38,593 bases of DNA. It comes from Bacteriovoracaceae bacterium (GTDB lineage: Bacteria; Bdellovibrionota; Bacteriovoracia; Bacteriovoracales; Bacteriovoracaceae). Below the pieces are notes generated by a model. That model ran no database searches. It was not told the DNA's origin and was given only the letters and a program-made list of their open reading frames with translations. The stretch is from assembly GCA_049599895.1 (NCBI GenBank), contig JBMYPC010000010.1:1-38593 (forward strand), given 5' to 3'. This document shows, piece after piece, positions 16,027 through 37,256 of this stretch. Both the position numbers and the translations under genes were made by a program. The stretch's first letter is position 1; every line of letters starts with the position of its first letter.

Positions 16027-16033
16027 TTCTTGT

Positions 16034-16474
16034 TCAATATAGCTCAATTTTAGAATAGCCAACAATAGGAGTTTTAACGGCTCGCCCTTTAACAATCTTC
16101 TCTTTAGTTGTAATAGCACCAATGGATTCGTAAAAATTGATAATTCTATTTAGATTTGCCGTATCTTTATCCATAATATTGGCCAGCTCATAGATTGAAT
16201 TAAGTCTAAACACCTGAATAGCAGTTAATACATCAATATGATTAATGAATTTTCGAAACTCTTTCATATCAGTAAAAGCGATCTCGTAATGAGAGGTTGC
16301 CTTTTTTTTGTTTTTCTTTACATCTTTAAAAGCCTTCTTTGCATCTGATAAAAGTGTAGATGTCGATTTTACTGAAATCACTAATTTTTTTCATCCAAAT
16401 GACATGAGGGTTTTTGGGGTAATGATTCTCCATTAATACTTTTCGATTAGTTTTAGTATCAATGAAAATGAGAG
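16034..16474 (-). pseudogene. Degraded duplicate of the DUF6516 toxin / HVO_A0114-like antitoxin pair
   Basis: Near-identical to 21013-21534. It has an internal deletion, one extra A after the antitoxin ATG, an altered C-terminus (KIELY vs KIELDLAA), and lacks the toxin 5' half. Confidence 0.88.
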
Positions 16475-16620
16475 TTAGTTTTCTAATAGTAGACTTTGCA
16501 GAAACTTTATTTTTTGTACTCATGGTGATTACCCTCCAAAAGTGTTAAATTGCTGATCTTGAAAGTATGCTGCAAAGGTGTACTCTTTTGAATTTATAGT
16601 TTCACAAAAAACACCCGTAT

Positions 16621-16706
16621 TTCCGCCATTATTCAAGTGGCGGGAATATGGCGGATATTGGTGAGCATATCCGCACATTGACAGTGGCGGATACTTGGCG
16701 GATAAT
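16621..16706 (+). promoter_or_regulatory. Sigma70 promoter embedded in TGGCGG(A) repeats
   Basis: TTGACA (16678-16683), 17-nt spacer, GATAAT (16701-16706). Six TGGCGG-type boxes in both orientations. Confidence 0.75.
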
Positions 16707-16725
16707 GAGTGCTCTAAGAAGTATT

Positions 16726-17748: not shown

Positions 17749-17900
17749 AACAGGAGAGCATTGATATGCCAAAAAAATTAACGAAAGTAGATAAGTGGAT
17801 TAAACGAGAAACAGATCACAAGCAGTAATAATAGCGAGGGTCATCCCACTCCATCTCATTAAAGCTATAGATAAATCTACTGATCGAGCAATTTCATCCA

Positions 17901-18212
17901 TCAAGCTGCGTCCTTTAATTTTTCAATTTTTTTAATTAAAGAGTTATAACCTTTCATAGCTTTAATCCCATTTGGAAAAAGTAAACTCTCAACCCTAGTT
18001 CCATATAACACAGAAAACTTTGCAGCTAATTCGACTCCAAGGTTACGTTTATCATTCTCAAGTGCTGAAAGATTTGACACTGAGATTCCAATAGCATTTG
18101 AAACATCTTTTTGAGTGTATCCAAAACGCATACGCATGGCCTTAAGTATTTTTCCGGATGTTAATTTTACTTTATCAATAGATCCCACAAAGACCTCCTT
18201 ATTCATAATCAT
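17901..18212 (-). CDS. XRE-family HTH antitoxin (HigA-like)
   Basis: LKAMRMRFGYTQKDVSNAIGISVSNLSALENDKR. Overlaps the upstream toxin gene. Confidence 0.82.
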   Translation of the reverse strand: MIMNKEVFVGSIDKVKLTSGKILKAMRMRFGYTQKDVSNAIGISVSNLSALENDKRNLGVELAAKFSVLYGTRVESLLFPNGIKAMKGYNSLIKKIEKLKDAA

Positions 18213-18510
18213 GATCTGGCGTAATCTTAATCACTTTCACCACAATCTTGTTCTTATAGTATTTATAAATTAGCCTTCCACCAGTTTGATTAAGCACTAT
18301 CGATCTTTCCCCTTGCCTTTTCCCTGAGAGTTTATGATCTTCGAGTGATCTAGCAAATGAAGATTCGATATATTCTTCATATCCAAGCTCTTGAATCTCA
18401 ATTTTCCAATAAGCAATTAAATCCCTAACTTCCTTGGCGAACCTCCCAGATTTAATATCTTTATCCAGTTGGGATTGAATAGCATCGTTAATTTCAACCT
18501 TGGTTATCAT
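18199..18510 (-). CDS. RelE/HigB-like mRNA interferase toxin
   Basis: DHKLSGKRQGERSIVLNQTGGRLIY...HDY and toxin-first order. The likely start is ATG 18510. Confidence 0.75.
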   Translation of the reverse strand: MITKVEINDAIQSQLDKDIKSGRFAKEVRDLIAYWKIEIQELGYEEYIESSFARSLEDHKLSGKRQGERSIVLNQTGGRLIYKYYKNKIVVKVIKITPDHDYE

Positions 18511-18517
18511 ACGCGAA

Positions 18518-18546
18518 AACTTATCACGAAAGATAACATGAGTCAA
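18518..18546 (-). promoter_or_regulatory. Sigma70 promoter with operator for the HigBA-like operon (leaderless)
   Basis: TTGACT-17-TAAGTT with extended TG, 7 nt before the ATG. TTATC-N6-GATAA palindrome at 18521-18536. Confidence 0.65.
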
Positions 18547-18607
18547 TCTATTTTTATATATAGTTGGCTCACACTTACCAGTGCCTTTATTCCTAAATTT
18601 GAGAAAA

Positions 18608-18661
18608 TCGGAATAATTCCGACCAATCGAACTTATCTAACCAAAGTCGGAACTTTTCCGA
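18608..18661. promoter_or_regulatory. Tandem palindromic operators TCGGAA-N3-TTCCGA
   Basis: TCGGAATAATTCCGA (18608-18622) and TCGGAACTTTTCCGA (18647-18661), just upstream of the HTH gene. Confidence 0.75.
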
Positions 18662-18671
18662 GAAAGAGGGC

Positions 18672-18965
18672 ATGGAATTAAGATTATCGAAAGTATTAAA
18701 AAGAGAGTAAAAAAACCTAAAGCTAAAAGAAGTTAGTGAGGCCACTGATATAAGTATTTCTCTTCTCTCCGACTGGAAAGAAGGACGTCTTCCTAATGGT
18801 AAAAATCTACCGAAACTTCAGCTTCTCGCTGACTATTTGGATTTAACTTTATCTCAGCTTTTATTCAGCAAAAAAGAACAAGACTCAACGGCAATAACGC
18901 TTCAATCGACCCAATTTCGTGACGGTGAAAACCAATATCGAATTATTATTGAAAAACTTAAATAA
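18672..18965 (+). pseudogene. XRE HTH regulator, copy 1, with an internal stop
   Basis: MELRLSKVLKRE*KNLKLKEVSEATDISISLLSDWKEGRLPNG...IEKLK, with TAA at 18708-18710. Paralogue of 21820-22101. Confidence 0.88.
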
Positions 18966-18974
18966 GGAGGACTC

Positions 18975-19363
18975 ATGGCTAAATATATAATTTTTTTGAT
19001 CACATTTTTATCTTTCTCTATCTTTGCAGAGGGTAACAAGACAAGATTCCCTGCACCTTTTGTAAAAATGGCAATCGATGGAATTAAAGACTACCCAGAA
19101 GTAGTAGATGCCGCCGTAAACCACAAGAGTAATGAGATTAACCTCGTCGTAGTTGTGAGAGAAGGGATTTCAACAGCAAAGGCTAAGGAGATGGGAGATA
19201 ACTTTCTTCGATGCTAATGGCCAACTCAATGGGCATCGAAAATTCTCCCAATAAACTAATCGGTCCAACCAAATTTTCCTATATAATTGGAGTATATGAT
19301 TCAAAAGAAAATAGGATCGCTATGGGAGCAAAGTCTGCTGTGGCAAGAAGTATAAAAAAGTAA
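18975..19363 (+). pseudogene. Secreted protein of unknown family, copy 1, frameshifted
   Basis: Homologous to 22111-22557. After GDNFLR a 1-nt shift restores LMANSMGIENSPNKLIGPTKFSYIIGVY...AMGAKSAVAR. Confidence 0.85.
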
Positions 19364-19645
19364 CCTAACTAACGTAGTACCAACAAGATCTTTATAATAC
19401 TCTTTCTTGTAAACCAAAACACAACCACTTCCCGGCAAGGGAGCAACACGTTCATCATCTGCACGAACATTATATAAATTTAAATTTTGGCTTATTTCCT
19501 GAATTTTATCCTGAACTTCTTGTAGTAGTCGAGTTCCTAAAGAAGCATGACCATGATAATTACCATAAACTTCTTTTTCTGCAGCTCGTTCCAAAAGGCG
19601 CTGGTATGAATCGCCTTCCCATTGAATATCATTAGCTCCTTCCAT
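19301..19645 (-). CDS. Possible RelE/ParE-like toxin, probably degenerate at the 3' end
   Basis: IQWEGDSYQRLLE...LGTRLLQEVQDKIQEISQNLNLY...CVLVYK resembles ParE. Lies downstream of a Phd-like gene. Confidence 0.45.
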   Translation of the reverse strand: MEGANDIQWEGDSYQRLLERAAEKEVYGNYHGHASLGTRLLQEVQDKIQEISQNLNLYNVRADDERVAPLPGSGCVLVYKKEYYKDLVGTTLVRLLFYTSCHSRLCSHSDPIFF

Positions 19646-19651
19646 GTTAAA

Positions 19652-19915
19652 CTAACCAACCTTTTCTTTGTTTTCAACCTTCCCAATAAGGTCATCCAGT
19701 TGCTTCATCTTAGAGCTAAAGTCTTCCATCATTTTCTCAGGACTATAAGATGTTCGCCTAGAGCTTCCCTCTGCTTTTTCCAAACGGGCCATAAGGCTGA
19801 AGAAATATTCTTGCGTCATCATTACTTTGACATCTTGTCCTCTATGAAAAATCTGAAAAATTTGTCCGTCTTCCATTTCCGAAACTAATGAAGGATCACT
19901 TTTTAAGTCACTGAA
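19652..19915 (-). pseudogene. Phd/YefM-like antitoxin, 5' truncated
   Basis: The frame extends upstream of ATG 19876 as FSDLKSDPSLVSEMEDGQIFQIFHRGQDVKVMMTQEYF (Phd pattern) and has no earlier start codon. Confidence 0.5.
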
Positions 19916-19971
19916 AATACATTTAAGTACATTTTAGTTCACAAGAAAAGTTCGTTTTAACGAATTTGAGT

Positions 19972-20615
19972 TTAACCAAGATTATTAAATTTAAAACGAT
20001 CTCTTTTAGATACAGGAGTTTCTTTGCCATGAATTGTTTTTACTGAATAATCGGGATAAAACCCTTGATTAATTTGGACAATAAACTCTTCCTTTGAAAG
20101 AACAATTTTTTTATCGACATCGTAAAAAGTTAAATTCTCACCGCTTTCGCTTTCCTCAACAACGAGAACAAGAGACTTCGGTTTCTTTTTTAAAAACTTG
20201 CTTCCTTTATAATCTCTCTCATCATCTGGAGAAATAATAAGCTCTTTTCGATTGAGAGCATCGTGAAGTAACTTCAATAAGTCTGCCCTTGTTTTGGCCT
20301 TCTTCCCATATTTTCTTCCAACAGCATTGTTCCATAAATCCATATTTTGGCTTCTGGGGTGAGATGATGATGTAGTGTCCGCAAATACAAGCTCATGAAG
20401 ACGTCCAAGATTCTCAGCAAGTCCTTCGCTAAACTCCATTGTATATGCTCCACTTACATAAGCATGTCTTAGAGCATCAACGTCATTATCATAGAATCTC
20501 CACTTATTTCATCAAAAGTGCCATCCTCTTTTCTAGGAAGTTTACGAATATTTTTATCAATATACTCATAGACTTCTAAACGGGCCTTAGATTTAAGATT
20601 GTATAGGTCTGACAT
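19972..20615 (-). pseudogene. DUF6973-like domain fused to a DUF3892-like C-terminus, one frameshift
   Basis: MSDLYNLKSKARLEVYEYID..., a frameshift near 20495, then DNDVDALRHAYVSG...MDLWNNAVGRKYG. C-terminus KEEFIVQINQG...TPVSKRD...NNLG. Confidence 0.6.
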
Positions 20616-20982
20616 ACTTTTTAGCTCGCAATAAAAATATTACTAAAATAAAAACAGCAAAGAATAAAAGAATTTTTCCAAGAATCTGTTGCCACATAAA
20701 ATTCATATCTATCTCGAAAACCAAGTAATTAGCAAAAATTCCTACAAATGCGATAAGTATTGTTGTCATTACTTGCTTATTTCCCCACCTTGTGAGGGAT
20801 ATAATAAAGCCCGAATTGGCCATAAGCCCTATCATTCCCCATTTTATATAAGTTAACAAACCTGAATGAGCATAGGCTTCAGCACCAGAGTATTTCATGG
20901 AAATGATGAAAAAAACTGTGTTGAAAAAAAGAAAAAGCAACACAAGCCGAGTAAAATGAATTTTTGTAATAAGATTCGTCAT
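20593..20982 (-). CDS. Four-TM membrane protein of unknown function
   Basis: Four hydrophobic segments and an AAGGA RBS. Starts 11 nt after the antitoxin stop. Confidence 0.75.
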   Translation of the reverse strand: MTNLITKIHFTRLVLLFLFFNTVFFIISMKYSGAEAYAHSGLLTYIKWGMIGLMANSGFIISLTRWGNKQVMTTILIAFVGIFANYLVFEIDMNFMWQQILGKILLFFAVFILVIFLLRAKKYVRPIQS

Positions 20983-20993
20983 TTAAATTCCTT

Positions 20994-21362
20994 TTAAGCA
21001 GCTAAATCCAATTCAATTTTAGAATAGCCTACAATAGGAGTTTTAACGGCTCGCCCCTTAACAATCTTCTCTTTGGTTGTGATAGCACCAATGGATTCGT
21101 AAAAATTGATAATTCTATTTAGATTTGCCGTATCTTTATCCATAATATTGGCCAGTTCATAGATCGAATTAGGTCTAAACATCTGAATAGCAGTTAATAC
21201 ATCAATATGATTAATGAATTTTCTAAACTCTTTCATATCAGTAAAAGCGATCTCGTAATGAGAGCCTGCCTTTTTCTTGTTTTTCTTTACATCTTTAAAA
21301 GCCTTCTTTGCATCTGATAAAAGTTTAGATGTCGATTTTACTGAAATCACTAATTTTTTCAT
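20994..21362 (-). CDS. HVO_A0114-like winged-HTH antitoxin (TumA-like)
   Basis: P-x-SIYELANIMDKDTANLNRII...G...K...P...Y.KIEL. ATGA overlap with the toxin gene. Confidence 0.78.
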   Translation of the reverse strand: MKKLVISVKSTSKLLSDAKKAFKDVKKNKKKAGSHYEIAFTDMKEFRKFINHIDVLTAIQMFRPNSIYELANIMDKDTANLNRIINFYESIGAITTKEKIVKGRAVKTPIVGYSKIELDLAA

Positions 21363-21646
21363 AACTTAACTCCAAAATGCTGTAGGACAAACTTTTCAAA
21401 GTCAGAAAAAAGTTTATCCTCTCCTTTGTACTCATAATCCATTTCTTTTTCATCTAAATGAACATGAGGGTTTTTGGGGTAATGATTATCCATTAATACT
21501 TTTCGACCAGTTTTAGTGTCAATGAAAATGAGAGAGTATTTAACTCTATCTGGGTAACGCTTATCATCCACGGCCCAAATCTTTACCTCTAAAACGTATT
21601 TACTGTGAACATACTGCTTAAAATGTTTTATTAATTCTGAACTCAC
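21359..21646 (-). CDS. DUF6516 / TumE-like toxin
   Basis: EVKIWAV...YPDRVKYSLIF...VLMDNHYPKNPHVH...Y.Y...KLFSDF. The likely start is GTG 21646. Confidence 0.78.
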   Translation of the reverse strand: MSSELIKHFKQYVHSKYVLEVKIWAVDDKRYPDRVKYSLIFIDTKTGRKVLMDNHYPKNPHVHLDEKEMDYEYKGEDKLFSDFEKFVLQHFGVKL

Positions 21647-21652
21647 TATTAT

Positions 21653-21690
21653 ACAGTACGACATATATATGTAAAAGTCAACATATATAA
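21653..21690 (-). promoter_or_regulatory. Sigma70 promoter with a palindromic operator for the DUF6516 TA operon
   Basis: TTGACT-17-TACTGT, 6 nt before the GTG. Palindrome ACATATATATGT (21661-21672) and a partial copy at 21681-21690. Confidence 0.55.
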
Positions 21691-21755
21691 TATTCAATAA
21701 GAATTACAAACACTTTTATGTGCTATCGTGCCTTGAAGCTAAAATTCTGGGAAAA

Positions 21756-21809
21756 TCGGAATTATTCCGACCAACCGAACTTATCTCACATGAGTCGGAA
21801 TAAAACCGA
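21756..21809. promoter_or_regulatory. Tandem TCGGAA-N3-TTCCGA operators, copy 2
   Basis: TCGGAATTATTCCGA (21756-21770) and TCGGAATAAAACCGA (21795-21809), with the same 39-bp spacing as copy 1. Confidence 0.72.
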
Positions 21810-21819
21810 GAATTGTTTT

Positions 21820-22101
21820 ATGGAATTACGACTATAAAAAGAATTAAGAAATCTAAAGTTAAAAGAAGTGAGCGAGGCCACAGGTATTAGTATTTCTCTC
21901 CTATCCGATTGGAAAGAAGGACGACTTCCGAATGGAAAGAACCTGCCTAAACTTCAGCTATTAGCCGATTACCTAGATTTAAGTTTATCTCAACTTCTAT
22001 TCAGTAAGAAAGAACAGAACTCGAGAGCAATCACACTCCAGTCAACTCAATTTAGAGATGGTGAGAATGAATATCGAATCATTATAGAAAAAATAAAATA
22101 A
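21820..22101 (+). pseudogene. XRE HTH regulator, copy 2, with an early stop
   Basis: MELRL*KELRNLKLKEVSEATGIS. A 12-bp deletion relative to copy 1 creates TAA at 21835-21837. Confidence 0.8.
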
Positions 22102-22110
22102 GGGGAACTT

Positions 22111-22557
22111 ATGAAAAAAATATTATGTACTTTGATGATTTTAATATCAACTAGTTTAATGGCCGAAAGTCAGAAGAAAAAAGAGAACCTTTGGGATAAT
22201 CTAACTGCTCCAGCTAAGAAAGAAGAGTCTAAACTAAGGTTCCCTAAACCATTTACCAAGTTAGCAATAGTTACAATTAAAGACTATCCAGAAGTTAAAG
22301 ATGCGACAATCAACCAAGATAAAGAGCAGATTAGTCTTGTTGTTATTGTTAGAAGAAGTGTGGGCAAAGAAAAAGCTAAAGAGATGGGAGATAATTTTCT
22401 AAGACTCCTAATGGCAAACTCAATGGGGACTGAGAACTCACCCAAAAAAGAAATAGGCCCAACCAAATACTCTTACCTTATTGGAGTATATTATCCTGAT
22501 GATTCAGAAGTTGCTCTTGGAGCTAAAGCACCTGCGGCGAGAAGGATTACATGGTAA
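22111..22557 (+). CDS. Secreted protein of unknown family (intact copy)
   Basis: Signal peptide MKKILCTLMILISTSLMA and an AAGGGG RBS. Conserved with the 18975 copy. Confidence 0.82.
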   Translation: MKKILCTLMILISTSLMAESQKKKENLWDNLTAPAKKEESKLRFPKPFTKLAIVTIKDYPEVKDATINQDKEQISLVVIVRRSVGKEKAKEMGDNFLRLLMANSMGTENSPKKEIGPTKYSYLIGVYYPDDSEVALGAKAPAARRITW

Positions 22558-23249
22558 AATACCTACTGATCTTAATTTCGGTTATTGGTTCATTAGCTAC
22601 CTATGCAGGCCAATCAAAATGCAAAAATGGAAATGATTATTTTCAGTGCGTTCAATATATTAGAAATTATGATGCTGACACGATTACATTTAAACTAGAT
22701 GGGATTCATCCCTTGCTAGGGGATAAAATACCGATAAGAGTTAGAGGTATTGATACTCCAGAACTTAGAACAAAGAACCAATGTGAGAAGAAAACTGGAT
22801 ATAAAGCAAAGGCTCTAGTGAACCAAAAAATCACTGCAGCCAAGCGTATAGATTTGGTTCGTTGTTCAAGAGGAAAGTATTTTCGTCTGGTTTGTTCAGT
22901 GCTATTAGACAGCAAGTTATTATCCGATATTTTAATCAAAAATAAGTATGCTTATAAATACGATGGAGGAACAAAAAGTAGAATAGATTGGTGTAATTAT
23001 CGAACCAAAAATATATTGGACAAATGTCCTTCGTCCGGTTCCATATCTGTACTTTTCCCTTCTATATCTCTTTCACAAATACCATCACCGTCTTTGAATT
23101 CATCTAAACCATCTAAAAGCTCATTCAATGTCTCCACCCTCTCGTGTAGATCATTCACTCCAATTATCCCGTACTCAAATTGTAATTTTGTAGTAAGGCT
23201 AAATGCTACTATCGAAGATTCTTCCATCAATTCTCCAAGAACTCATTGA
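22551..23249 (+). CDS. Secreted thermonuclease (SNase-like). The tail after ~22996 is probably spurious read-through
   Basis: YDADTI, IRVRGIDTPE, RGKYFRLV and YDGGTK...DWC, followed by Ser-rich antisense-like sequence. Confidence 0.85.
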   Translation: MVKYLLILISVIGSLATYAGQSKCKNGNDYFQCVQYIRNYDADTITFKLDGIHPLLGDKIPIRVRGIDTPELRTKNQCEKKTGYKAKALVNQKITAAKRIDLVRCSRGKYFRLVCSVLLDSKLLSDILIKNKYAYKYDGGTKSRIDWCNYRTKNILDKCPSSGSISVLFPSISLSQIPSPSLNSSKPSKSSFNVSTLSCRSFTPIIPYSNCNFVVRLNATIEDSSINSPRTH

Positions 23250-23350
23250 TCAAATGGAATCTATTTCTATACTCTTCATAATTTATTTGTTTATCGAAGA
23301 GATATTTATTTCGGTGTGGGTACAGATTTACGCTGTGGTGCTTGTTTCCT
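22997..23350 (-). pseudogene. Fragment of an unknown gene
   Basis: Acidic ORF 22997-23230 plus an upstream open stretch (YKIGNKHHSVNLYPHRNKYLFDKQINYEEYRNRF) in another frame. Confidence 0.4.
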
Positions 23351-23354
23351 ATCT

Positions 23355-24213
23355 TATAAGGGATAACGTAAAAAGCATCAAAACCGAGCAAAATAGTAGA
23401 GGTAGAGCAAAGAGATGTAACTTAGATAATGAGCTTAATCTTTTGACGACAATCTATAACTGGTATAAATCATCTGAATATTTTGAAAATGAAGTAATAG
23501 ACTTTAGGAATCCCGTAAGAACTCAACATAAAAAAATGGGCTTTATTCGTCCCAAACCAATAAAGAACCTAGGTATCAAACTCGATGATGCCTTAAAATT
23601 CTTCTCTTACTTAAAGCCTCTGTACCGAGATGTTGCACTTTTTCAGTTTTATACAGCAAGTAGGATTGGTGAGGTCGCTGGTCTTCAATGGAAGCGTGTT
23701 GATTTTGTGAACAAAAAAATTGTTATTATGGAAACTGCTCGATGGGATATGACGAATAAGGTGTTTATCTCTTTGAACGCTTTTCCAAAAAACCGTGAAC
23801 CTAGGACAATTTATCTTACTAAAGAACTAAATGAGATACTTCAAAGGCGACTTGAAAATAAAGATTCTGATAGTGACTATGTTTTTCATGTAGAAGGAGC
23901 ACCTCTAAACTATTGTACTATCCAAGTAAATTACAGAGGTGCACAAAGAAAAGCACAGATCCCATACAGTGGTACTCATATCCTAAGACATGGGATGGCC
24001 CAACTTGCTAGAAAGGTCGGAGGATGTCTAACAAGCGTTGTTGCGATGACAGGTCACAAAGACTTTAGACTTGCTGACCACTACAGTAAGCTAGATGAAT
24101 CTTTTCAAAAAGAGGTTTCCCTCAAGATAATGGATCACATCAGAGAGCATCAAAGCTTTAAAGCTCAAACAGAAGATGAAGTGATAAGACTTGCAAGGTT
24201 TGAAGGTGAATAG
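23355..24213 (+). pseudogene. Tyrosine recombinase/integrase, N-terminally truncated
   Basis: Catalytic set TASRIGE, K, HILRH, TGH and DHY. The first ~50 aa of the called ORF (from 23203) look like antisense of another gene. Confidence 0.8.
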
Positions 24214-26934: not shown

Positions 26935-29900
26935 GTGATGGCAGTAAAACTTAAAATTCACAGTCTTTTCTTTTTAAGCATGATGCTTTTTTTGCAATCA
27001 TGTTTAGAGCTCAACACTGCCTCCGTTGAAGAGACAATCGAAGAAGGTGGGACAACAATTCCACTTCCTACCGTTTCCGCTCCGGCCCAAATCACAATTG
27101 ATGAAGATACAAATACGGGACCAGTAATTTTTAAAGTGAAAAACCTTTTCAGTAAAAGAACTCTTTGCTCTCCAAAAACAAAATACACTTTTGATAACAC
27201 AACCCTTCTTGAAAATGCCGGAATCTCCGTCTCTGGTTTTTTCCCAGACTGTCAGATACTGATCCAATCTCTCCCAGAGCAGTTTGGAAATGCTGTGATC
27301 AACTTTACTTTTTATAACTTTGAAGGAGAAGAAGTCACCCATCAGTTAAACCTCGTGGTTGATGAAGTGGATGACCCTCCAAGTTTAAGTGATACCGCTG
27401 ATCAAGTCGGAACTGAAGATCAGGATATAGGCCCAATTGATTTTACAATTGAAGATGACATTACTAACTTTAACTGTACCGACGTCATCCTCACCACAGG
27501 TAACTCAACAGTTCTTCCCACATCGAGAATCACAATTTCTGGTACCGCGCCTTATTGTAAGATTGCTTTTTCGCCAGTTCCCGACACCTATGGATCAAGC
27601 ACAGTGACCCTCAGATTCTTCGATGGAACTCATTTAGTCGAAGATACCATTGAGACCACATTTAATGAGTTCAATGATCCTCCAAGCTACACTACGGCCC
27701 CAGTCAATCAAGTTGGTAACGAAGACCAAACCATTTCTCATATTCCCGTTAAGATTGCGGATATTGATACAACTTTAGTCTGTACAAATGCTTTCAGTGT
27801 GAGTTCAAGTAATACCACCTTGCTTGAAGCAAGTGATTTTACTTTTTCGGGTACAGCACCTGATTGTCTTATTTCTTATACACCTAAAGCAGATGCCTTT
27901 GGTTCAAGTACAATAACACTGAGTCTTACTGATGGAACGAATACTATAACAGACACATTTCTAGTCACAGTAAACTCTGTTAACGACGCTCCTTCGATTT
28001 CAACTGTGATTGATCAAACAAGCTATGAAGACAATTCAACATCTGCTGTGAATTTTACAATCTCAGATACAGAAACAAACCTCAACTGTGTCACAGATAT
28101 TACAGCAACTTCAACGAACACAACTCTCTTACAAAACGCGAAGATAGCGATCACAGGAAGCGCCCCTAATTGTAGCTTCACTCTTACACCTGAAGCAAAC
28201 GAAAGTGGGACCAGTACTGTCACTCTAAGAGTAAGTGATGGGACTACAACCACAGATGAAACTTTCACTTATAATGTCACTGCCGTTGATGACCAGCCCA
28301 CACTCACTTTGCCTTCAGGACAAACAATCCTTGAAGATCAAAGTCTAGGCCCGGTGGTTTTCACAGCCTCTGACCAAGAAACTGTGGTTGATTGTACTAA
28401 CGATATTTCAGTATCCTCTGGAGACACCTCGCTTATTCAAAACTCTTCAATCACTCTTGGAGGAGCGGCTCCTAACTGTACTTTCTCTCTCACACCAGAA
28501 GCCGGGAAATTTGGCAACACTGCCCTTACCTTCACTCTGACTGATTCAGTCTCAAGTGTCTCTGTTCTTAAAGTCATTAATATTGAAGTCACTGCGGTTG
28601 AAGATTCTCCTGAGTTTACGATGCCAGCAATCCCTCTTGTTTATCGAAACGGTGAAACTGGAGAACTTGATTTCACCCTTAGAGATGATGAGCAAGCTCT
28701 GAATTGTGTGACTTCAATTACAGTAGCCTCAACCGATACCACTCTTATCCCAATAGCCAACGTTATCCTCTCTGGAACCGCTCCCAATTGTAAGATGAAC
28801 ATTATTCCCGCAGCAACGCTCTCAGGAACATCAACAATTACTCTTACAGCAACAGATGGAAGTGGCCTCTCAGTTGATACCGATGAAGCTTTTCTGGTTA
28901 CCGTCGACCCACAAGAAGAAGATCCTGTTGTTAGTGTGCTTACACCACTTGATGATGCAACCGGAGTCAGTGTGGATTCAAACCTCACCATTCAATTTGA
29001 TGAAGATATTGCCGCTGGAACAGGATTAATTCTGATTAAAAAAGATAGTGATGATTCAATTATTGAATCTATCGATATTACCTCAAGTGATGTTGACATC
29101 ACTGATGACACTCTTACCATTAACCCAACTCTTGATTTTCCAAGCCACACAGATCTCTACATTGAACTTCCAGCAGGAATTATTGTTGATGTAGATAAAG
29201 GCAATTCATTTGCAGGGATTCTTTTAAAAACAGACTGGAGCTTTGCAACCAAAGGAACTCCGTTTGATAATAACTTCAACTTCTCTATTGGCTCAGAATA
29301 CCTTTGTGAGTCAGGAGGCTGTAATTCAAACTATGTGATGGTGAGTTCAGGAAGTGCGAGTCTTCTTCCTCTTGATCTTACAGTTGATTCCACGAGTGAG
29401 TATACAAGTGGGAATTCCGCAGGAGTCTCAGAGTCAAGCTCAAATCTTCTTCTAGATTCCTCTTATAACCGAAATAGCTTTCACGAGTCGTGGGTTCCAA
29501 AGTTTTCAAATGTTGTGGCCTATTATTCATTTGATAATGATGTGAATGATGCATCAGGCTCGGCAAATACTCACAACGGAACAAACTCTGGTATGACATA
29601 TCTTACAACTTCAAAAGTTGGAACACATAGCGGTAGTTTCGATGGTGCAGATAGCGTGAGCATAAATGACCATACCGATTTTGATATTGGAGTTGGAGAC
29701 AAAGTCTCATTTTCTCTTTGGCTTAAGTCTACTTCTACCCCAGCTAACGCTTACATCATTTTTGATAAAAGAGAGAAAGTAGCAGCCGACTGGACAGGTT
29801 ACGGGTTGACCTATGTGAACTCAAACCGTTTACGTGTCATGCTTTATAGGTCATCGGGTACTTCGTCTACAACTCTCGATAGCTCTACAGTCTTTAATAC

Positions 29901-31683
29901 AGGGGAATGGTTTCATGTAGGAGTCACTATTGACCGTGACTCGACAATAAATTTATTTGTGAATGGGCGCTTAGAAAACACGACAAACATTTCGGCATAT
30001 TCAGCAAGTGACTTTAGTAACTCCTCTAACCTTGTGATTGGGGCCAAGTCTGAAGCAGCAAGTGCCTATATCCCATTTGTCGGAGAACTCGACGAGATGA
30101 TCGTTTGGAACGATAGCGTAAGTAGTGACCAAATGAAACAGATTTACCATCATCAAAAAGCGACTTACACGGGAGAGCACAAATCAAAAGTCTTCAATCT
30201 TGGAAAAAGTAGCTCTTGGCCAGGGATAAACTGGCAAGCAATGCACCCCTATCAAAAAGAACTTCCAGGTAGTTTAGGAAATGAATCTCAATCTGATTAT
30301 AATTCTCTTGTCACATCTATTGGAACCTATGGTGACAGTGACCTGAGTAATTCCTTAATCGGTCTTTGGCATTTCAACTCAAGCCACGATGACTTTAGTA
30401 ATAATAGCAATACGCTTACACCTGATGGAGCAACAATAAGTTCTTTTTCGATGTTTGGTGCAGGCTCTTTATTATTTGATGGAGTGAGTGACCATACCGA
30501 AGTAACTGATCCTGTCGATGGCTCCCTCGACGTTGACACAAGAGATTTCTCTATCTCTCTTTGGGTTTACTCTAGAGATTTTGCTGCCGCGACCAATGAT
30601 TTCCTTGTTCTCAAAGACGATGACGATGCAAGTTCGAATGGGTTTGGGCTCTATATCGAAGATGGTCATCTTAAAGGTTATGTTGATAATTCCGCAACTG
30701 AAGCCGTTGCCCTCTCGGTAGAGGAAATTCGAAGTAATGTTTGGAACCATATTGTCTATCGAGTTGATCGTGGGGTTCTTCAACAGCTTTTCATCAATGG
30801 TAAAGAAGTGACCTACACAACCCAAGATACTCCACATACAGAAGATCTCTCCAATACTCGTGCATTTATTATTGGTTCTGATGAAGCAGGGGTAAGCCCA
30901 TTTAGAGGTTACATTGACGAAGTTGCTATCTGGAATAGGGCCATCAATATCGGAGAAGTCCAAGAACTTTATCGAAGAGGGGCAAACAGAATCAAATTCC
31001 AAGTGAGAAGTTGTGCTGCTTCAGACTGTACAGATCAAGACGCCCTGAGTGGTGACGGCTGGATCGGTCCAGGTGGAGACAACCAGAGCTTTTTCAGTGA
31101 AGCGCAAAACTGCGTCTCAGTTGATGGAAGTGGTGATTGTAATGGTGATATCAACCTGAGTCGCCCCTATTTTGAATTCGCTGACTTTGTCACTGCCCCA
31201 ACAGATAATCAGTATTTTCAATGGCGAGCGATCTTTGAAAGTGATGATGAAAACGATGCTTGTTTTGGCTCAACCTGTATGCCAACTCTTAATAATGTAA
31301 GCCTCAATGCTAAAACGGGATCTCTTGTGACTGGATCAGATATTGAAAGATACTGGGGTGCCATTCCAAAGATTGAAAATAATCTCTCTTTATCTTTTAG
31401 TGATATCACTTCAATCACTTTAACTGAAACCGGAAGCTGTGCCATGAGATATCAAATTTCAAATGACGGCGGCGCGACTTATTACTATCACACAGGAGCA
31501 GCCTGGGCAGCTTCAGCAAACGAGACCACACATACCAACACAAAAGCTCAACTTGAAGCCAATATCACAAGTTTTGCTCCGTCAGCTCCTCCAAGTAGCG
31601 ATTTTAAATTTAAAGTTCTTATGGACTCTGATACAGATCAAACCTGCGGAATCGACAATATCAATATTGTTGGTGAAGACTAG
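26935..31683 (+). CDS. Large surface lipoprotein: six cadherin/Ig-like repeats, an Ig-like (Big_5-type) domain and two LamG domains
   Basis: Lipobox LQSC, V(N/D)DxP-linked ~100-aa repeats, TP.DDATGV..DSNLTIQFDE, and two LamG blocks (FSLW...WxH...FxGxxDE). Confidence 0.85.
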   Translation: MMAVKLKIHSLFFLSMMLFLQSCLELNTASVEETIEEGGTTIPLPTVSAPAQITIDEDTNTGPVIFKVKNLFSKRTLCSPKTKYTFDNTTLLENAGISVSGFFPDCQILIQSLPEQFGNAVINFTFYNFEGEEVTHQLNLVVDEVDDPPSLSDTADQVGTEDQDIGPIDFTIEDDITNFNCTDVILTTGNSTVLPTSRITISGTAPYCKIAFSPVPDTYGSSTVTLRFFDGTHLVEDTIETTFNEFNDPPSYTTAPVNQVGNEDQTISHIPVKIADIDTTLVCTNAFSVSSSNTTLLEASDFTFSGTAPDCLISYTPKADAFGSSTITLSLTDGTNTITDTFLVTVNSVNDAPSISTVIDQTSYEDNSTSAVNFTISDTETNLNCVTDITATSTNTTLLQNAKIAITGSAPNCSFTLTPEANESGTSTVTLRVSDGTTTTDETFTYNVTAVDDQPTLTLPSGQTILEDQSLGPVVFTASDQETVVDCTNDISVSSGDTSLIQNSSITLGGAAPNCTFSLTPEAGKFGNTALTFTLTDSVSSVSVLKVINIEVTAVEDSPEFTMPAIPLVYRNGETGELDFTLRDDEQALNCVTSITVASTDTTLIPIANVILSGTAPNCKMNIIPAATLSGTSTITLTATDGSGLSVDTDEAFLVTVDPQEEDPVVSVLTPLDDATGVSVDSNLTIQFDEDIAAGTGLILIKKDSDDSIIESIDITSSDVDITDDTLTINPTLDFPSHTDLYIELPAGIIVDVDKGNSFAGILLKTDWSFATKGTPFDNNFNFSIGSEYLCESGGCNSNYVMVSSGSASLLPLDLTVDSTSEYTSGNSAGVSESSSNLLLDSSYNRNSFHESWVPKFSNVVAYYSFDNDVNDASGSANTHNGTNSGMTYLTTSKVGTHSGSFDGADSVSINDHTDFDIGVGDKVSFSLWLKSTSTPANAYIIFDKREKVAADWTGYGLTYVNSNRLRVMLYRSSGTSSTTLDSSTVFNTGEWFHVGVTIDRDSTINLFVNGRLENTTNISAYSASDFSNSSNLVIGAKSEAASAYIPFVGELDEMIVWNDSVSSDQMKQIYHHQKATYTGEHKSKVFNLGKSSSWPGINWQAMHPYQKELPGSLGNESQSDYNSLVTSIGTYGDSDLSNSLIGLWHFNSSHDDFSNNSNTLTPDGATISSFSMFGAGSLLFDGVSDHTEVTDPVDGSLDVDTRDFSISLWVYSRDFAAATNDFLVLKDDDDASSNGFGLYIEDGHLKGYVDNSATEAVALSVEEIRSNVWNHIVYRVDRGVLQQLFINGKEVTYTTQDTPHTEDLSNTRAFIIGSDEAGVSPFRGYIDEVAIWNRAINIGEVQELYRRGANRIKFQVRSCAASDCTDQDALSGDGWIGPGGDNQSFFSEAQNCVSVDGSGDCNGDINLSRPYFEFADFVTAPTDNQYFQWRAIFESDDENDACFGSTCMPTLNNVSLNAKTGSLVTGSDIERYWGAIPKIENNLSLSFSDITSITLTETGSCAMRYQISNDGGATYYYHTGAAWAASANETTHTNTKAQLEANITSFAPSAPPSSDFKFKVLMDSDTDQTCGIDNINIVGED

Positions 31684-32369
31684 ATCAGGTTCTCAAGTTT
31701 TGTAAGCCCCATGGCGTACTTTGAAAAATAATCTCTTTTTATGGAATAGCTTTTTAAGATCTCTTTTAAGAAGTCTGGCAGGAATTGTTCTTCGTATTTA
31801 ATTTCCATCAAGATTCTTCGTCTTTGGGGCTCTTCAAAAAATTCTCTTCTTTGCTCAAATTTTTGTCCCAAAGGATAACTGGAAAGAACATGATCAAAAG
31901 TCACTCTCAGCTTCTTCGAGTCAAGATACTTCTCATAAGCTTCCCTTTCATAATAAACAAAGCAGCTCGGGCGAAGTTTTTGGGTTCGAAACTCACGAGA
32001 AACATCAGCATCATCAAAGTTTTTAAGAAAATCTTTATCAAAGATGTCTGTTCCCACTTTGAGAGGATTTCGACTTTTAAATTGTCGATCATCAATTTTA
32101 ATTTTTTGCTCTAACCAAATCTCATCTTTTTCAAGAGAAAAGCTTTTTGAATAAGTTCGAAATCTTAGCTTGTAATGGCGAAGCTCTCCATTAATCTTTT
32201 GATAGAAATACTCTTTATCAGGAGTATCAAAATAAAGACTTGTAATGGGATAGGCCCCTCCACACTTTGTCGTGTAGGTATCAGGCTTTAAAAGAAATCC
32301 CACTTGCCTTCGAAGAGCATAGTACTGATCAAAGTTTAAAAGATATTTTGATTCATATCGGACAGCCAT
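31680..32369 (-). CDS. VTC-domain polyphosphate polymerase family protein
   Basis: RYESKY, ITSLYFDTP, KLRFRTY, LEQKIK, YEREAY, RVTFD, MEIKY and FSKY. The likely start is ATG 32369. Confidence 0.9.
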   Translation of the reverse strand: MAVRYESKYLLNFDQYYALRRQVGFLLKPDTYTTKCGGAYPITSLYFDTPDKEYFYQKINGELRHYKLRFRTYSKSFSLEKDEIWLEQKIKIDDRQFKSRNPLKVGTDIFDKDFLKNFDDADVSREFRTQKLRPSCFVYYEREAYEKYLDSKKLRVTFDHVLSSYPLGQKFEQRREFFEEPQRRRILMEIKYEEQFLPDFLKEILKSYSIKRDYFSKYAMGLTKLENLI

Positions 32370-34059
32370 TGAACCCCACCAATCTCTTCTCTTTACCAAT
32401 CTTTTGCAATGGAATGGCCCTATTGCCTCCACCTTCAGTTACCCAAACAGGAACTTTTTCATTTTTCTTAGGATTTTTTGATCTTACTTGAATTTGGTAT
32501 TTTGAAAAATAGATCTTCATATGACCCACGGCCTTTCCGGTTTCACGGTCCACCTCGATCATATGATCCTGTTGATTAATACTCGCTGGATAATAAGCAA
32601 GGACATTTCGATTCCCCATCATGTAAGCACTTCCTCTATTGAAAATCTTAAGATAATGAGGGGGTTGATAATTCCAGACGACGACGGCCTTTCCCTTTTC
32701 TTTATCAAAACCATACACGACCACTCTGGAGCCTATATTATTGGGAGCGGGAGGAGAAGAATGATTATCCATCATAAGAACATAACCACTTGGAAGGATC
32801 TGTGCGTGATGCTGATGATAGAATGCATGTTGAAGATTTTTAGTTTGGTAAGTATCTTCAGGGTCGTTGCCAAGAGTCCAAACAAGATTAAATTTTTCAT
32901 CGAGAAGAACAACTTTTGAAAGATTTCTTAGGCTAATGAGATAACCTAGCCCTGGATAATATTCAAGAGTGTTAGCATGAGAAAAATCAATTTGAGCTTC
33001 CGGCTTATCAAACTCTGAAAAATGCCTGCCAAGATTCAACAACGCAAAGTTGGCATGGGCGGGCGTTCTCTCCCAATTAACGCCTTTTAAGATATTAAAG
33101 GAATCAATGGGATCCCATAAGATCTTGCTAGAATTCTTTCCAATATTAACCTCTTCTAAAGTTGTTGAAACCACTGTGGATGGAGGTGTAAAAAACTGAA
33201 GCCAGTGTTGAGTATCATCGATGAGAGGATAAATATTTCGAAGATAATGCAATTTATGGCCAAGGGTAAAGAGACGATTACTATGGTAAACAAAATCGTG
33301 ATGAATCACATAAGGGTTATCAGAAAGTTTAGGATTGATACTAAAGTCAATTTCCCCTTTTGAATTAAACTTTTCAAAGAAGCTGGATTTCTCACCATAA
33401 AGAACACCATAGAGGCCATCCCCTACAGGCTTAACCATAAGGTATCTTCTAAAATTGAGTTTTCCATGTTGAGTAAGATGGGCCCAAACAATTTCCCCAA
33501 AACGATTGATAATGACTGGAAAATAAGTTCTATCTCTGAGATTACCCGTTGTTGGAATAAATGCAGCACCTATAAGATAAAAAGGATCAGAAAACTCCCC
33601 TTCTTTTGTAATTCCAAAGTTTTCGAGAATGGGAACCTTCGGAGCTTCTAACTTTTTCGTTTGGACAGTTTTAAGATTGCCTTTCTTGTCTTCAACACAA
33701 AATTCAAGCTTAGAAAGATAAGTTGGAGGCAAATATTCGAAACCTGTCCCAATGGAATCTTTGAACTTATCTTTTGTTTTGAAATAACCAATCTCCGCGT
33801 TACCGTAGATAAGAGAATCAGACTCATCAGAAACATAGAGTTTTTTATGAAAAGACTTGGCAAGGTTTCCATGACCAAGAATGGCAATACGATTAAGGTT
33901 GGCCTTGTTGTTAATCTTAAGACGGTCCCTCATCTCTTTTAGGTTCTGAACTCTTTTAATAGGATTCAAGCTCGAAGGAATCAACGTGGCCACACAAATC
34001 AGTGAAGCACCGAAAATGAGAAGCTTTGTCATGTCCTTTTTATTAAAACGATTTGCCAT
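32353..34059 (-). CDS. Arylsulfotransferase (ASST)-like beta-propeller, exported or membrane-anchored
   Basis: N-terminal hydrophobic helix, IHHDF, DFSHANT, ISLRN, FYHQHHAQ and RGSAY. Confidence 0.8.
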   Translation of the reverse strand: MANRFNKKDMTKLLIFGASLICVATLIPSSLNPIKRVQNLKEMRDRLKINNKANLNRIAILGHGNLAKSFHKKLYVSDESDSLIYGNAEIGYFKTKDKFKDSIGTGFEYLPPTYLSKLEFCVEDKKGNLKTVQTKKLEAPKVPILENFGITKEGEFSDPFYLIGAAFIPTTGNLRDRTYFPVIINRFGEIVWAHLTQHGKLNFRRYLMVKPVGDGLYGVLYGEKSSFFEKFNSKGEIDFSINPKLSDNPYVIHHDFVYHSNRLFTLGHKLHYLRNIYPLIDDTQHWLQFFTPPSTVVSTTLEEVNIGKNSSKILWDPIDSFNILKGVNWERTPAHANFALLNLGRHFSEFDKPEAQIDFSHANTLEYYPGLGYLISLRNLSKVVLLDEKFNLVWTLGNDPEDTYQTKNLQHAFYHQHHAQILPSGYVLMMDNHSSPPAPNNIGSRVVVYGFDKEKGKAVVVWNYQPPHYLKIFNRGSAYMMGNRNVLAYYPASINQQDHMIEVDRETGKAVGHMKIYFSKYQIQVRSKNPKKNEKVPVWVTEGGGNRAIPLQKIGKEKRLVGFNGCPI

Positions 34060-34124
34060 TTACTTCATAATTTTAAGATAATTAGATTTGATCTGTCAGT
34101 TAAATATGATTGAGGTATAACCAC

Positions 34125-34826
34125 ATGGACATTAACCACCTGATTAAGTCAATTTTTATTTCCGATACCAATGCCCTTGGGGTGCTCGACATCTTTCTTG
34201 CCATCACTTTTCCTTTTATCCTTTGTCTTTTTATTGGCTATTTCTATAAAAGAACCAATTACCAGAATCATTACTCCATTAACTTCATTTTAGCGATTCC
34301 TCTGTTTGGTGCTCTCACCAGTATTATCACTCTTTTGATTGGCTCAAATATCGCAAGGGCCTTTGGTCTTGTTGGTGCTCTTTCTCTGATTCGTTTTCGT
34401 ACAGCAGTGAAAGACCCCATTGATTCAATCTATCTTTTTTGGGCATTAGGTGTGGGCATGGCCTGTGGAACCGGGTTTTATCTCGCTGCCATTGCCATTG
34501 TTCTTTTAGGAATTACCTATATGGCAATTCTCTATAAAATTAAGTTTGCTCAATCTGAACGAGTGAATCTTATCGTTAAGGCCTTCTTTTCAAAGTCTGC
34601 TGACGAATCACAAATAAAAAGCTTTGAAAAAGAATGTGAAAGCTATTTTTCAAGTGTTAATCCTCTGAATATCTATACATCATCTCAATCAGATGAGAAT
34701 GAGTTCGTTTACTCCTGTCAGCTTAAGAAGCGCATGGGAACCACGAGCTTAGTAGAAGAACTTAAAAAGAATAAAGATGTTAAAAAAGTTGAAGTTCTCT
34801 CTCAGGATTCGGCACTTTATCTTTAA
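34125..34826 (+). CDS. DUF4956 membrane protein
   Basis: IGSNIARAFGLVGALSLIRFRTAVKDP...GMACGTG and a C-terminal ACT-like domain. The ATG at 34125 follows GAGGT. Confidence 0.9.
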   Translation: MDINHLIKSIFISDTNALGVLDIFLAITFPFILCLFIGYFYKRTNYQNHYSINFILAIPLFGALTSIITLLIGSNIARAFGLVGALSLIRFRTAVKDPIDSIYLFWALGVGMACGTGFYLAAIAIVLLGITYMAILYKIKFAQSERVNLIVKAFFSKSADESQIKSFEKECESYFSSVNPLNIYTSSQSDENEFVYSCQLKKRMGTTSLVEELKKNKDVKKVEVLSQDSALYL

Positions 34827-34834
34827 AGAGGGCC

Positions 34835-35902
34835 ATGAAGCTTTTAATTCTTCTTTCCTTTTTATTGCCTTTCTTCGCTCTTTCAAAAGAAAAAAAGAAG
34901 CTCTATTTTGGAACTCCGAAAAGGCTCGAATTTGAATATAAGTTTGCTTCAACAATTAACCCTAAACAGAATCTCGATATTAAGGCCATTATTTCGCGAT
35001 TTAAAAGTGAGCTTGAACGTCTTATTAATAAAGAGGTCTTTCATTTTCCTAAGCTTTCTAAGAAGTCCTATTGGCAAGATCTTCAATTTACAAGTTTCGT
35101 TTTCCAAGATCATTATCTCGATACTGACAGTCTCGCTGTATTCAACGCTAACTCTGTTTATCGATTAAGACATCGCTGGGTTCACACGGAAAAGTTTTAT
35201 CGCCACCAGATACTTCCCTTTTTACGAGTGTTCTATCCAGATCGTTGTGAAATTCAATTTAAAAGTGGTTATATTCGAAATGAAGAAGATAAAACTGTTA
35301 AAGTCTTTGAAACCCGATTTGAGTTTCGAAAAGAGTCGGAACCTTTTTTATCTAACGGTGGAACACCTCCTCCACCATGGCCAGTTAAAGAATATCTTGA
35401 ATACGCTAAAAGTGGTGAATACAAAATTTTTCCTATGCTTCCCTTTTATGAACTCGAAGCAACAATTGGAAAAAATGAAGTGGCCCAAATAGCCCCGAAA
35501 CTAAAAGTCACAACCGAAAGGCATCGAACTCATCTTAATATGGATCATCTTTGGGGAGTTGGACCTAACCCTCAACACGTTTTTATTCTTACTCTCGATC
35601 TCTCGAGAGTCCAAAATCTCCAAACGGGCGAATCTCTGAAAGAGACATTTCTTGAACTTGAAATTGAAATTGATCGCAATACCTCAACTGAAATCAACCG
35701 AATTGCAGACCTTAAAGAATTTCGTTCAGCAATGGAGGAAAAGGCTTCTGAAACTTCAAAAGAAGCTCAAGGTCTTTTAAAGCTTGACCTTAAACTGCTT
35801 CGAAAGAGTTTTGAAAAGATCTTAAATGAAGAGTTTCAACTGACTCAAGACCCTACAAACAATAAGTATTCAAGATTTATCACACTGTTTAAAAAATCTT
35901 AG
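34835..35902 (+). CDS. Signal-peptide-bearing CYTH/triphosphate tunnel metalloenzyme-like protein
   Basis: N-terminal signal, EFEYK (ExExK), DHYLDT, YRLRHR, QFK, TERHR, LTLD, LELEIE and NKY. Confidence 0.7.
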   Translation: MKLLILLSFLLPFFALSKEKKKLYFGTPKRLEFEYKFASTINPKQNLDIKAIISRFKSELERLINKEVFHFPKLSKKSYWQDLQFTSFVFQDHYLDTDSLAVFNANSVYRLRHRWVHTEKFYRHQILPFLRVFYPDRCEIQFKSGYIRNEEDKTVKVFETRFEFRKESEPFLSNGGTPPPPWPVKEYLEYAKSGEYKIFPMLPFYELEATIGKNEVAQIAPKLKVTTERHRTHLNMDHLWGVGPNPQHVFILTLDLSRVQNLQTGESLKETFLELEIEIDRNTSTEINRIADLKEFRSAMEEKASETSKEAQGLLKLDLKLLRKSFEKILNEEFQLTQDPTNNKYSRFITLFKKS

Positions 35903-37256
35903 TGTAACCAAACGAAAAGAGATCATTGGCCCTATAGTCATACCAGTATGAACGAGTATCAGGACTTCGAAGAAGTTTTGCTCCAAAAGAAAAGAATGAA
36001 TCTTTGCTCCAGAGATACCTGGAATCTGCACTAATGAGCTGATCTTTAAGTCTTAGATCATAAAGATACTTAACGCGAAAACTCACTTTCGGAAGAACTT
36101 GGTTTTGGTATTCAGTTCCGATCCCTCTTCTCCAAAGAGGAGCAAAAGTGAGAAAGTCATCCCCAAAATTTTTATCACCTTCAAGCATGGCAATGGTTTT
36201 AATGGTTGCCGACTGTCTTTTGGCCACAGGGAGTTTGAGATCAAAAAACCAATAACTTTGCTTTTCATAGTTTGGATTGATCTTAATATATTCCGTTTCA
36301 AAAATTCTTCCGGTTCTCTCTTGTTCTATAGGATCAAGAATCACAAAATCATCAAACACATTTGAGTTTGGATCAATCACTTGAAAGCTATTTTTCACGA
36401 CGACTTTTTTATCTTTTGTATGAACCGATAGATCTGCTCCAAAAACAGAATGATGATTGACTATGGGAGCCGCTGTGGCCTGAATTCTTGCACTTGTATC
36501 AGGAAAGGCCTGAGCATTAATTCTAAGTTGGTTTTCAGGCTTATACAGTCCAAAAGCTGAGACAGAGACATTGGTCCAATCATAACCGATCTTTGCTCCA
36601 AAACTTTTTTTGAAAACCACATCACTGACATCAGGTCTTTCAACATTATAGTTGATATCTAATTGATTGCCTTCAACGACGACTGTTGAAGGAGGAGTTC
36701 TTCCCCAATAGGACTTTCGAACGATCTTTCCATCTTCTTCATCGATTCTAGGATTAAGAGAGGGAACATAAAAATAAGAAGCAAAAAGCTCTGTATGAAA
36801 TTTTTTATTTTCAGATTGAAACCTTGAGTGAACACCAAACTTTCCTTCTTGCCTCTCATCAAGAAAGTTTATGCCAACGGCCCCATTAATATTTGAAAGG
36901 TACCAAAAGCCTTCATCCGCAGACCAATCAAGACGCTTTCTCCCCACTCCCACTTCAATCACTCGATCAAATTGATGAGTGTAATAAAGTTCACTTAATG
37001 AGTAGGCCAAATGGGATTTCTCTTGGAAGTATTGAGAATGGGCCTCAACTTTAGTTTTGCCTTTAGAAAACTTCCTTTCATCAACAATACTGAGATCAAA
37101 AGAGTTATTCATTTGCTGATCAATATTTGCGTTAGAAAAGTTTTGGGATTGAATCCCAAGGGAAAGATCACTTTTCAGCTCTGCAGCATTCAAAAGATGC
37201 AAAGAAGTTGTAAGTACTAAAAATGACGTGAGCATGTGTCTAATCATATTTGACAC
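35889..37256 (-). CDS. Outer-membrane beta-barrel protein of unknown function
   Basis: Signal peptide, amphipathic strands, SELYY..VGRKRLDWS and a terminal Phe (FSFGYTKIF). Confidence 0.7.
   Translation of the reverse strand: MSNMIRHMLTSFLVLTTSLHLLNAAELKSDLSLGIQSQNFSNANIDQQMNNSFDLSIVDERKFSKGKTKVEAHSQYFQEKSHLAYSLSELYYTHQFDRVIEVGVGRKRLDWSADEGFWYLSNINGAVGINFLDERQEGKFGVHSRFQSENKKFHTELFASYFYVPSLNPRIDEEDGKIVRKSYWGRTPPSTVVVEGNQLDINYNVERPDVSDVVFKKSFGAKIGYDWTNVSVSAFGLYKPENQLRINAQAFPDTSARIQATAAPIVNHHSVFGADLSVHTKDKKVVVKNSFQVIDPNSNVFDDFVILDPIEQERTGRIFETEYIKINPNYEKQSYWFFDLKLPVAKRQSATIKTIAMLEGDKNFGDDFLTFAPLWRRGIGTEYQNQVLPKVSFRVKYLYDLRLKDQLISADSRYLWSKDSFFSFGAKLLRSPDTRSYWYDYRANDLFSFGYTKIF

Follow-up and report, generated by a model that had tools for sequence, protein, structure and literature searches.

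A 38,593-nucleotide stretch of DNA from a Bacteriovoracaceae bacterium (assembly GCA_049599895.1, contig JBMYPC010000010.1, positions 1-38,593; hereafter the window) carries four adjoining genes, for an aryl sulfotransferase (ASST)-fold protein, a VTC-domain enzyme, a DUF4956 membrane protein and a predicted exported enzyme of the CYTH/triphosphate tunnel metalloenzyme (TTM) fold. Genes of the type cotH-polyphosphate polymerase (VTC)-DUF4956 are known from Gram-positive pel loci, where the literature treats them as accessory and uncharacterised (10.1101/768473; PMC12345266), and are reported in NELoc-2 of C. perfringens (PMC2879425). Like these triads, the window locus joins a VTC and DUF4956 core to an exported group-transfer enzyme, but it has an ASST-fold protein in place of CotH and an added exported tunnel enzyme, and it lies outside a polysaccharide cluster. 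What does a protein with a sulfotransferase fold do beside such a core? The survey described here establishes that the four genes are a conserved module, not accidental neighbours, and that the ASST occupies the slot of CotH within it. The triad with CotH is already in print and this substitution is the new part; a search of the literature, covering main texts that were mostly open-access, found neither an ASST partner of VTC or DUF4956 nor an ASST-fold phosphotransferase, though an ASST phylogeny in preparation could bear on this.

The ASST-fold protein alternates with CotH

The family of the exported tunnel enzyme, comprising 23 proteins, led to 49 loci, which together with two from genome G104 and the window itself make 52 (loci carry handles beginning with L and relatives' genomes handles beginning with G, the window's own genome being G000). 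Partner genes were identified by Pfam and then by profiles built from those matches. CotH was present in 28 of the 52 loci and ASST in 14, and none held both. Clustering at 90% identity gave 42 non-redundant groups, many of which end at contig edges; 13 had ASST (11 of these with both VTC and DUF4956), 23 had CotH, six had neither and again none had both. An initial annotation, made from the letters of the window alone, had suggested surveying DUF4956 and VTC neighbourhoods for ASST against CotH partners, and was to be abandoned if the four genes did not co-occur in other genomes; the two partners alternate, and the co-occurrence is wide. The divergent layout of the window is repeated in L023 and L027, while the other loci are co-oriented, with several gene orders.

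The association was also tested prospectively by running the ASST profile (A5) over 131 genomes of the phylum of G413, taking matches at E 1e-30 or better. Six genomes matched and in all six the gene was linked to the module, three of them being known already. Each of the three newly found ASSTs adjoins VTC and DUF4956, two also adjoin the tunnel enzyme and none adjoins CotH.

No CotH gene was found in a Pfam scan of the window, as the initial annotation had noted. The genome's sole CotH match belongs to a separate DUF4956-CotH-VTC locus on another contig (C126:1083-5016, L002-L004), a triad of the canonical type lying amid what appear, judged from translations, to be surface-polysaccharide genes, and its DUF4956 is 28% identical to that of the window. 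Among the ten other ASST-type genomes, eight gave no Pfam match to CotH anywhere, bearing in mind that the assemblies are incomplete and that divergent CotH escapes Pfam. This absence weakens the notion that ASST-type loci depend on a CotH in trans, which was set aside as unsupported.

The ASST version of the module is nevertheless rare, and the link is not general. DUF4956 matches occur in 61 of 351 genomes of the host's phylum, and neighbourhoods were obtained for 60 of the 64 places above the cut-off outside the host genome. These held an HlyD-type adaptor in 38 cases and CotH in 16 (one locus having both), ASST with the tunnel enzyme in a single case, on the same contig as L023, and none of these in six. 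ASST matches were found in 14 of the 351 genomes, G000 and G405 being the only two with linkage. Among 201 genomes of the class of G409 (matches in 16 and 38) linkage was seen in G409 only, and in 181 genomes of Planctomycetota (matches in 43 and 44) no ASST came closer than 10 kb to a DUF4956 match. The tunnel enzyme is itself present in only two of 151 genomes of the host's order.

Phylogenies, all of a quick type and with long branches, indicate at least two separate recruitments of ASST. In the tunnel-enzyme tree the Dehalococcoidia genes of ASST type are nested among CotH-type genes with 99% support. A single clade of ASST-type tunnel enzymes was rejected (approximately unbiased test, p-AU 2e-6, on 35 rows that exclude near-duplicates and loci whose partner is unknown), requiring at least two changes. 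The linked genes are spread over three lineages of the ASST tree. A single clade of linked ASSTs bearing the arginine described below was rejected as well (p-AU 1e-6), with the group having been defined after the trait was seen.

Several individual loci deserve mention. L216:7244-8769, from the prospective test, has its module ASST broken into two reading frames, with the adjoining tunnel-enzyme, DUF4956 and VTC genes intact; this could be a real break or an assembly error. L013 contains a degenerate window-type ASST lacking the catalytic motifs and an unrelated, intact ASST of 390 residues that bears the arginine (1007-2461 and 5172-6344), and looks as if ASST replacement were under way. In the class of G409, a Cthe_2159 carbohydrate-binding beta-helix adjoins DUF4956 in L138, L139 and L141, together with VTC in the last two, and is an additional partner type of the core. 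At L069:4692-8393, VTC and DUF4956 form a single run with a UbiA prenyltransferase gene and a weak match to CYTH.

Layout of the locus and the core proteins

All four open reading frames lie where the initial annotation had placed them, in two divergent pairs, ASST-VTC and DUF4956-CYTH, and its further claims of a 65-bp shared spacer and tight coupling within each pair were reproduced. The spacer (34060-34124) is exactly 65 bp because DUF4956 starts at the ATG at 34125, behind a GAGG site. With the ATG at 32369 as the start of VTC, the ASST and VTC genes share 17 nt; the open reading frame finder gave an in-frame GTG at 32432, inside the ASST gene. An 8-bp gap separates DUF4956 from the fourth gene. 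Divergent, back-to-back sigma-70-like sites are visible at the spacer (34053-34082 on the plus strand and 34070-34099 on the minus strand, matching at 10/12 positions each), three sites being observed against 1.1 +/- 0.9 expected, a weak excess. Pfam identified VTC (PF09359, E 1e-29), ASST (PF05935, E 2e-14) and DUF4956 (PF16316, E 4e-13), with the fourth gene below its cut-off, and a scan with NCBIfam gave a name to none of the four. The nearest named relatives are Bdellovibrionota, the G+C content gives no sign of recent transfer, and no RNA run was among the listed matches of a search of sequencing runs.

The VTC-domain protein (31680-32369, minus strand, 229 residues) is predicted to be a cytoplasmic triphosphate-tunnel enzyme like Vtc4, with which the initial annotation had compared it. 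A search of the PDB with its single sequence gave no match, but a profile of 68 VTCs matched Vtc4 (3g3q) at E 1.6e-25. Lys8, Arg69, Arg71, Lys89, Glu189 and Lys217, invariant in the 68 sequences, align with Vtc4 Lys200, Arg264, Arg266, Lys281, Glu426 and Lys458, of which we take the three lysines to have roles in Vtc4 too. Arg264, Arg266 and Glu426 are reported as the residues changed in order to inactivate Vtc4 (PMC9911596). An N-terminal hydrophobic segment was found in none of 87 VTCs; compartments were here and below assigned by a hydropathy rule rather than by a signal-peptide predictor.

The adjoining DUF4956 protein (34125-34826, plus strand, 233 residues) is predicted to be an inner-membrane protein, with three hydrophobic segments above threshold. 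In an alignment of 68 sequences the motif Arg90-Phe-Arg92 is invariant and the nearby Lys96 nearly so. The pairing recalls the yeast VTC complex (Vtc4/Vtc3/Vtc1; PDB 3g3q and 8i6v; PMC9911596), in having a Vtc4-type tunnel domain that retains its catalytic residues, next to a small membrane protein in which invariant basic residues occur. It differs in that the window VTC is a stand-alone domain of 229 residues with neither SPX nor membrane part, its tie to DUF4956 being one of gene linkage. The available portion of PMC10657179 treats eukaryotic VTC only.

The fourth gene (34835-35902, plus strand) encodes a protein of 355 residues with a hydrophobic N-terminus consistent with a Sec-type signal peptide; such a segment was present in 42 of 45 tunnel enzymes. 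Its assignment to CYTH/TTM is based on the fold of the model (predicted local distance difference test score, pLDDT, 93.5), on an Atlas structure search and on the precomputed PF01928 annotation carried by four of 23 homologues. When the model was compared with PDB structures using VIA-align, the best match was E. coli YgiF (5a61; Z 16.6, rmsd 3.0 over 201 residues), followed by putative cyclases (Z 14-15) and Vtc4 (Z 10.2); a fold by itself does not define the substrate. The family shares with the YgiF-type triphosphatases the tunnel fold, the ExExK motif and the basic tunnel residues, its conserved set being ExExK with the tunnel Arg, Glu and Lys, and departs from them in its signal peptide or lipoprotein signal, its conserved inserts and its fusion to CotH in nine loci (L014, L032-L035, L043, L046, L047 and L049, six of which show neither VTC nor DUF4956 in the DNA covered). 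The initial annotation was right to see a second, exported tunnel enzyme, with export signal and tunnel fold. This enzyme is not specific to the ASST version, being commoner with CotH.

The ASST-fold protein and the arginine at the Thr501 position

The ASST-fold beta-propeller (32353-34059, minus strand, 568 residues; model pLDDT 88) has a single N-terminal membrane anchor at residues 13-31. Its best structural matches are Cpz4 (9kf6, Z 33.9) and E. coli AssT (3elq, Z 29.8), with other propellers well below them (next unrelated row 20.6). In the A5 profile alignment to 3elq, His361, Asn363, Arg378 and His417 align with AssT His356, Asn358, Arg374 and His436, and His254 is equated with His252 by a conserved HHD motif only; as judged from the alignment, the whole His-relay set His252/His356/Asn358/Arg374/His436 is retained. 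His417 (32809-32811, minus strand) is the counterpart of the AssT carrier His436. N-terminal hydrophobic segments were found in 12 of 15 ASSTs and 28 of 34 CotH proteins. Fold, relay residues and anchor are those expected of the exported His-relay enzyme described in the initial annotation.

One position departs from this likeness. The Thr501 of AssT, which coordinates the sulfuryl group (PMC13426309), is replaced in the window protein by Arg475 (32635-32637, minus strand). The Salmonella ASST is reported to have Val473 at this position (10.64898/2026.10.08.757629), and in the Desulfitobacterium enzyme the backbone of Ile417, by our inference the equivalent residue, touches the sulfate (10.64898/2026.10.08.757636). 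The small or aliphatic residue of these three characterised enzymes is therefore missing from the window protein; since the position is variable across the family, the arginine is a difference that still allows membership of the ASSTs. Compared with the aryl sulfotransferases (AssT, Cpz4 and those of D. hafniense and S. Typhimurium), which it resembles in its propeller fold, its His relay and its extracytoplasmic location, the window protein is further set apart by its single membrane anchor, the lack of an adjoining dsbL/dsbI pair and its tie to a phosphate-type module.

Of 15 linked ASSTs verified at the DNA level, 13 have arginine at the Thr501 position (10/12 plus 3/3 newly found in the prospective test), as against 1 of 65 unlinked controls (1/35 plus 0/30), where Ile, Val, Cys or Leu is usual. 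Left out of these counts were two linked proteins, one truncated and the other degenerate, four controls that were partial or aligned poorly, a single duplicate, and seven further arginine-bearing proteins in the ASST tree that were covered as protein only. No fusion to a VTC, DUF4956, tunnel or CotH domain was seen among 144 ASST relatives.

A proposed mechanism and its alternatives

Because the ASST stands at the usual place of CotH, it would seem likely that the group it transfers outside the cytoplasm is phosphate and not sulfate. With the kinase replaced, a His relay that suits a tetrahedral anion and a cation gained at the anion site, it is most likely a phosphotransferase. On the reading that we prefer, the module would make and export polyphosphate, with the ASST-fold protein as a His-relay phosphotransferase replacing CotH; we would put this complete reading at a little below an even chance. 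In this scheme the cytoplasmic VTC would polymerise the gamma-phosphate of ATP as Vtc4 does, yielding polyphosphate, and DUF4956 would pass the polymer across the inner membrane along a path lined by the basic R-F-R...K motif. The exported YgiF-like enzyme might trim the polymer to a short donor or recycle leftover chains, a role that is presumably accessory because one ASST locus lacks the tunnel enzyme. His417 would then pass a phosphoryl group on to a hydroxyl of some envelope component, be it protein, glycan or lipid, and Arg475 could compensate for the additional negative charge that a phosphoanhydride donor brings. The core would present outside a phosphoanhydride polymer made inside, and its outputs would be exchangeable: an adaptor for export, a kinase of the CotH type or an enzyme of the ASST fold.

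A number of points weigh against this proposal. Every characterised ASST is described as transferring sulfate from aryl donors (PMC13426309), and neither the bacterial VTCs nor DUF4956 nor this ASST clade have a demonstrated activity. Two linked ASSTs lack the arginine, that of L009 having Gln and the second gene of L056 Cys, and in the Dehalococcoidia copies His356 is replaced by Asn and Arg374 by Lys. The arginine may moreover be in part an inherited clade trait, since only four independent pairs are available (sign test p 0.25, non-significant) and 61 of 144 context-free relatives, including 24 of the top 30 from a profile that itself favours Arg, carry it along with the one unlinked control. 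The exported enzyme has a hydrolase as its closest fold. The host genome has PPK1 and PPK2, the latter at window positions 1-852, at the start of the contig and some 31 kb from the module. Finally, in S. intermedius the deletion of DUF4956 or CotH is reported to have halved aggregation in sputum medium, whereas the published account, as available, reports no such drop on deletion of the VTC gene (PMC12345266).

The ASST could instead be a true sulfotransferase, sulfating the envelope where the CotH versions use phosphate, with VTC, DUF4956 and the tunnel enzyme supplying or recycling a nucleotide or phosphosulfate co-substrate. The fold and the complete relay set of the window protein would fit this, as would its best structural match, Cpz4, which sulfates sugar hydroxyls (PMC13426309); HocST, a putative AST, is reported to use 3'-phosphoadenosine 5'-phosphosulfate (PAPS) (PMC13426309), and all three Dehalococcoidia genomes have APS kinase. 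We nevertheless think it unlikely. APS kinase gave no match in the host genome, which is 97% complete, and of the ten other ASST-type genomes only four have a strong match, two having weak cross-matches and four none, which weakens a role in sulfur transfer. A PAPS-dependent sulfotransferase was absent among the Pfam-scanned neighbours, a selection of open reading frames, the Thr501 position holds Arg, and a single core feeding both a kinase and a sulfotransferase is hard to picture.

Equally improbable, in our view, is that the exported enzymes degrade or bind phosphate polymers, either in periplasmic turnover of polyphosphate or in scavenging external polyphosphate or triphosphate, with DUF4956 and VTC acting inward. 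The match of the exported enzyme to the triphosphatase YgiF is in keeping with this, as are the slow hydrolysis of donor that ASSTs show when acceptor is lacking (10.64898/2026.10.08.757629), the seawater origin of the DNA (the main sequencing-run holder may be the source sample) and the phytase-like or phosphoesterase genes that adjoin a few other core loci. The HlyD-type adaptor of 38 of the 60 phylum loci is, however, typical of export, the alternative partner CotH is a kinase, and the core frequently lies inside surface-polysaccharide clusters.

A regulatory circuit seems more doubtful still. Here VTC would make or cleave a nucleotide signal, DUF4956, with an MgtC-like part and an ACT domain, would sense it, and the exported enzymes would be outputs, with no polymer exported. 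DUF4956 does give a weak Pfam match to MgtC, its S. intermedius orthologue is described as having an ACT domain and its deletion as altering Pel levels (PMC12345266), and class IV adenylyl cyclases share the tunnel fold. The VTC profile, on the other hand, matches Vtc4 at around E 1e-25 and YgiF at E 0.06 only, and the HlyD-type adaptors and the exported tunnel enzyme would be left unexplained. That the four genes are merely chance neighbours, for which the scarcity of the tunnel enzyme in the order and the unlinked state of most ASSTs might speak, can be dismissed in view of the 11 of 42 loci with all four genes in several orders, the divergent layout shared with L023 and L027 and the three out of three in the prospective test.

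Neighbouring genes

On the polyphosphate reading, the transferase needs an acceptor. The initial annotation had the periplasmic enzymes modifying surface glycans or proteins; the export signals agree with a location outside the cytoplasm, but nowhere do the ASST-type loci favour glycans over proteins. Overlapping the VTC stop is a gene (26935-31683, plus strand) for a surface protein of 1582 residues with cadherin-like, Ig-like and LamG domains; its long paralogues in the genome number at least five. As L020, L023 and L027 too are flanked by large surface proteins, such proteins are candidate acceptors. This adhesin was rejected as a member of the module itself, clustering with no protein of the related loci. 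A DUF1302-like outer-membrane beta-barrel gene (35889-37256, minus strand), convergent with the tunnel-enzyme gene and overlapping it by 14 bp, was likewise rejected, a homologue being absent among the open reading frames of related loci. Further away, positions 13991-24213 contain DnaB-like, Fic, nuclease and integrase genes, many short open reading frames and a lower G+C content, suggesting a small integrated element.

Implications

Taking the repeated recruitments together with the phosphotransferase reading leads to a wider proposal, which we hold only tentatively and would judge rather more doubtful than sound: that bacteria have more than once turned the ASST propeller into a polyphosphate-fed, ATP-independent phospho-His phosphotransferase with an arginine at its anion site, swapping with CotH on a split VTC synthase-exporter. 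To our knowledge, the phosphoryl source of exported kinases such as CotH is unsettled, and the natural donors of ASSTs are described as unknown after 40 years (PMC13426309). The exchange of ASST with CotH on a polyphosphate-type core joins these two questions, and the arginine at the Thr501 position helps to predict module membership among the many unassigned ASST-like genes. If the proposal is true, phosphorylation outside the cytoplasm would have a donor supplied by the module, whose propeller would represent the first non-sulfur chemistry of the ASST fold.

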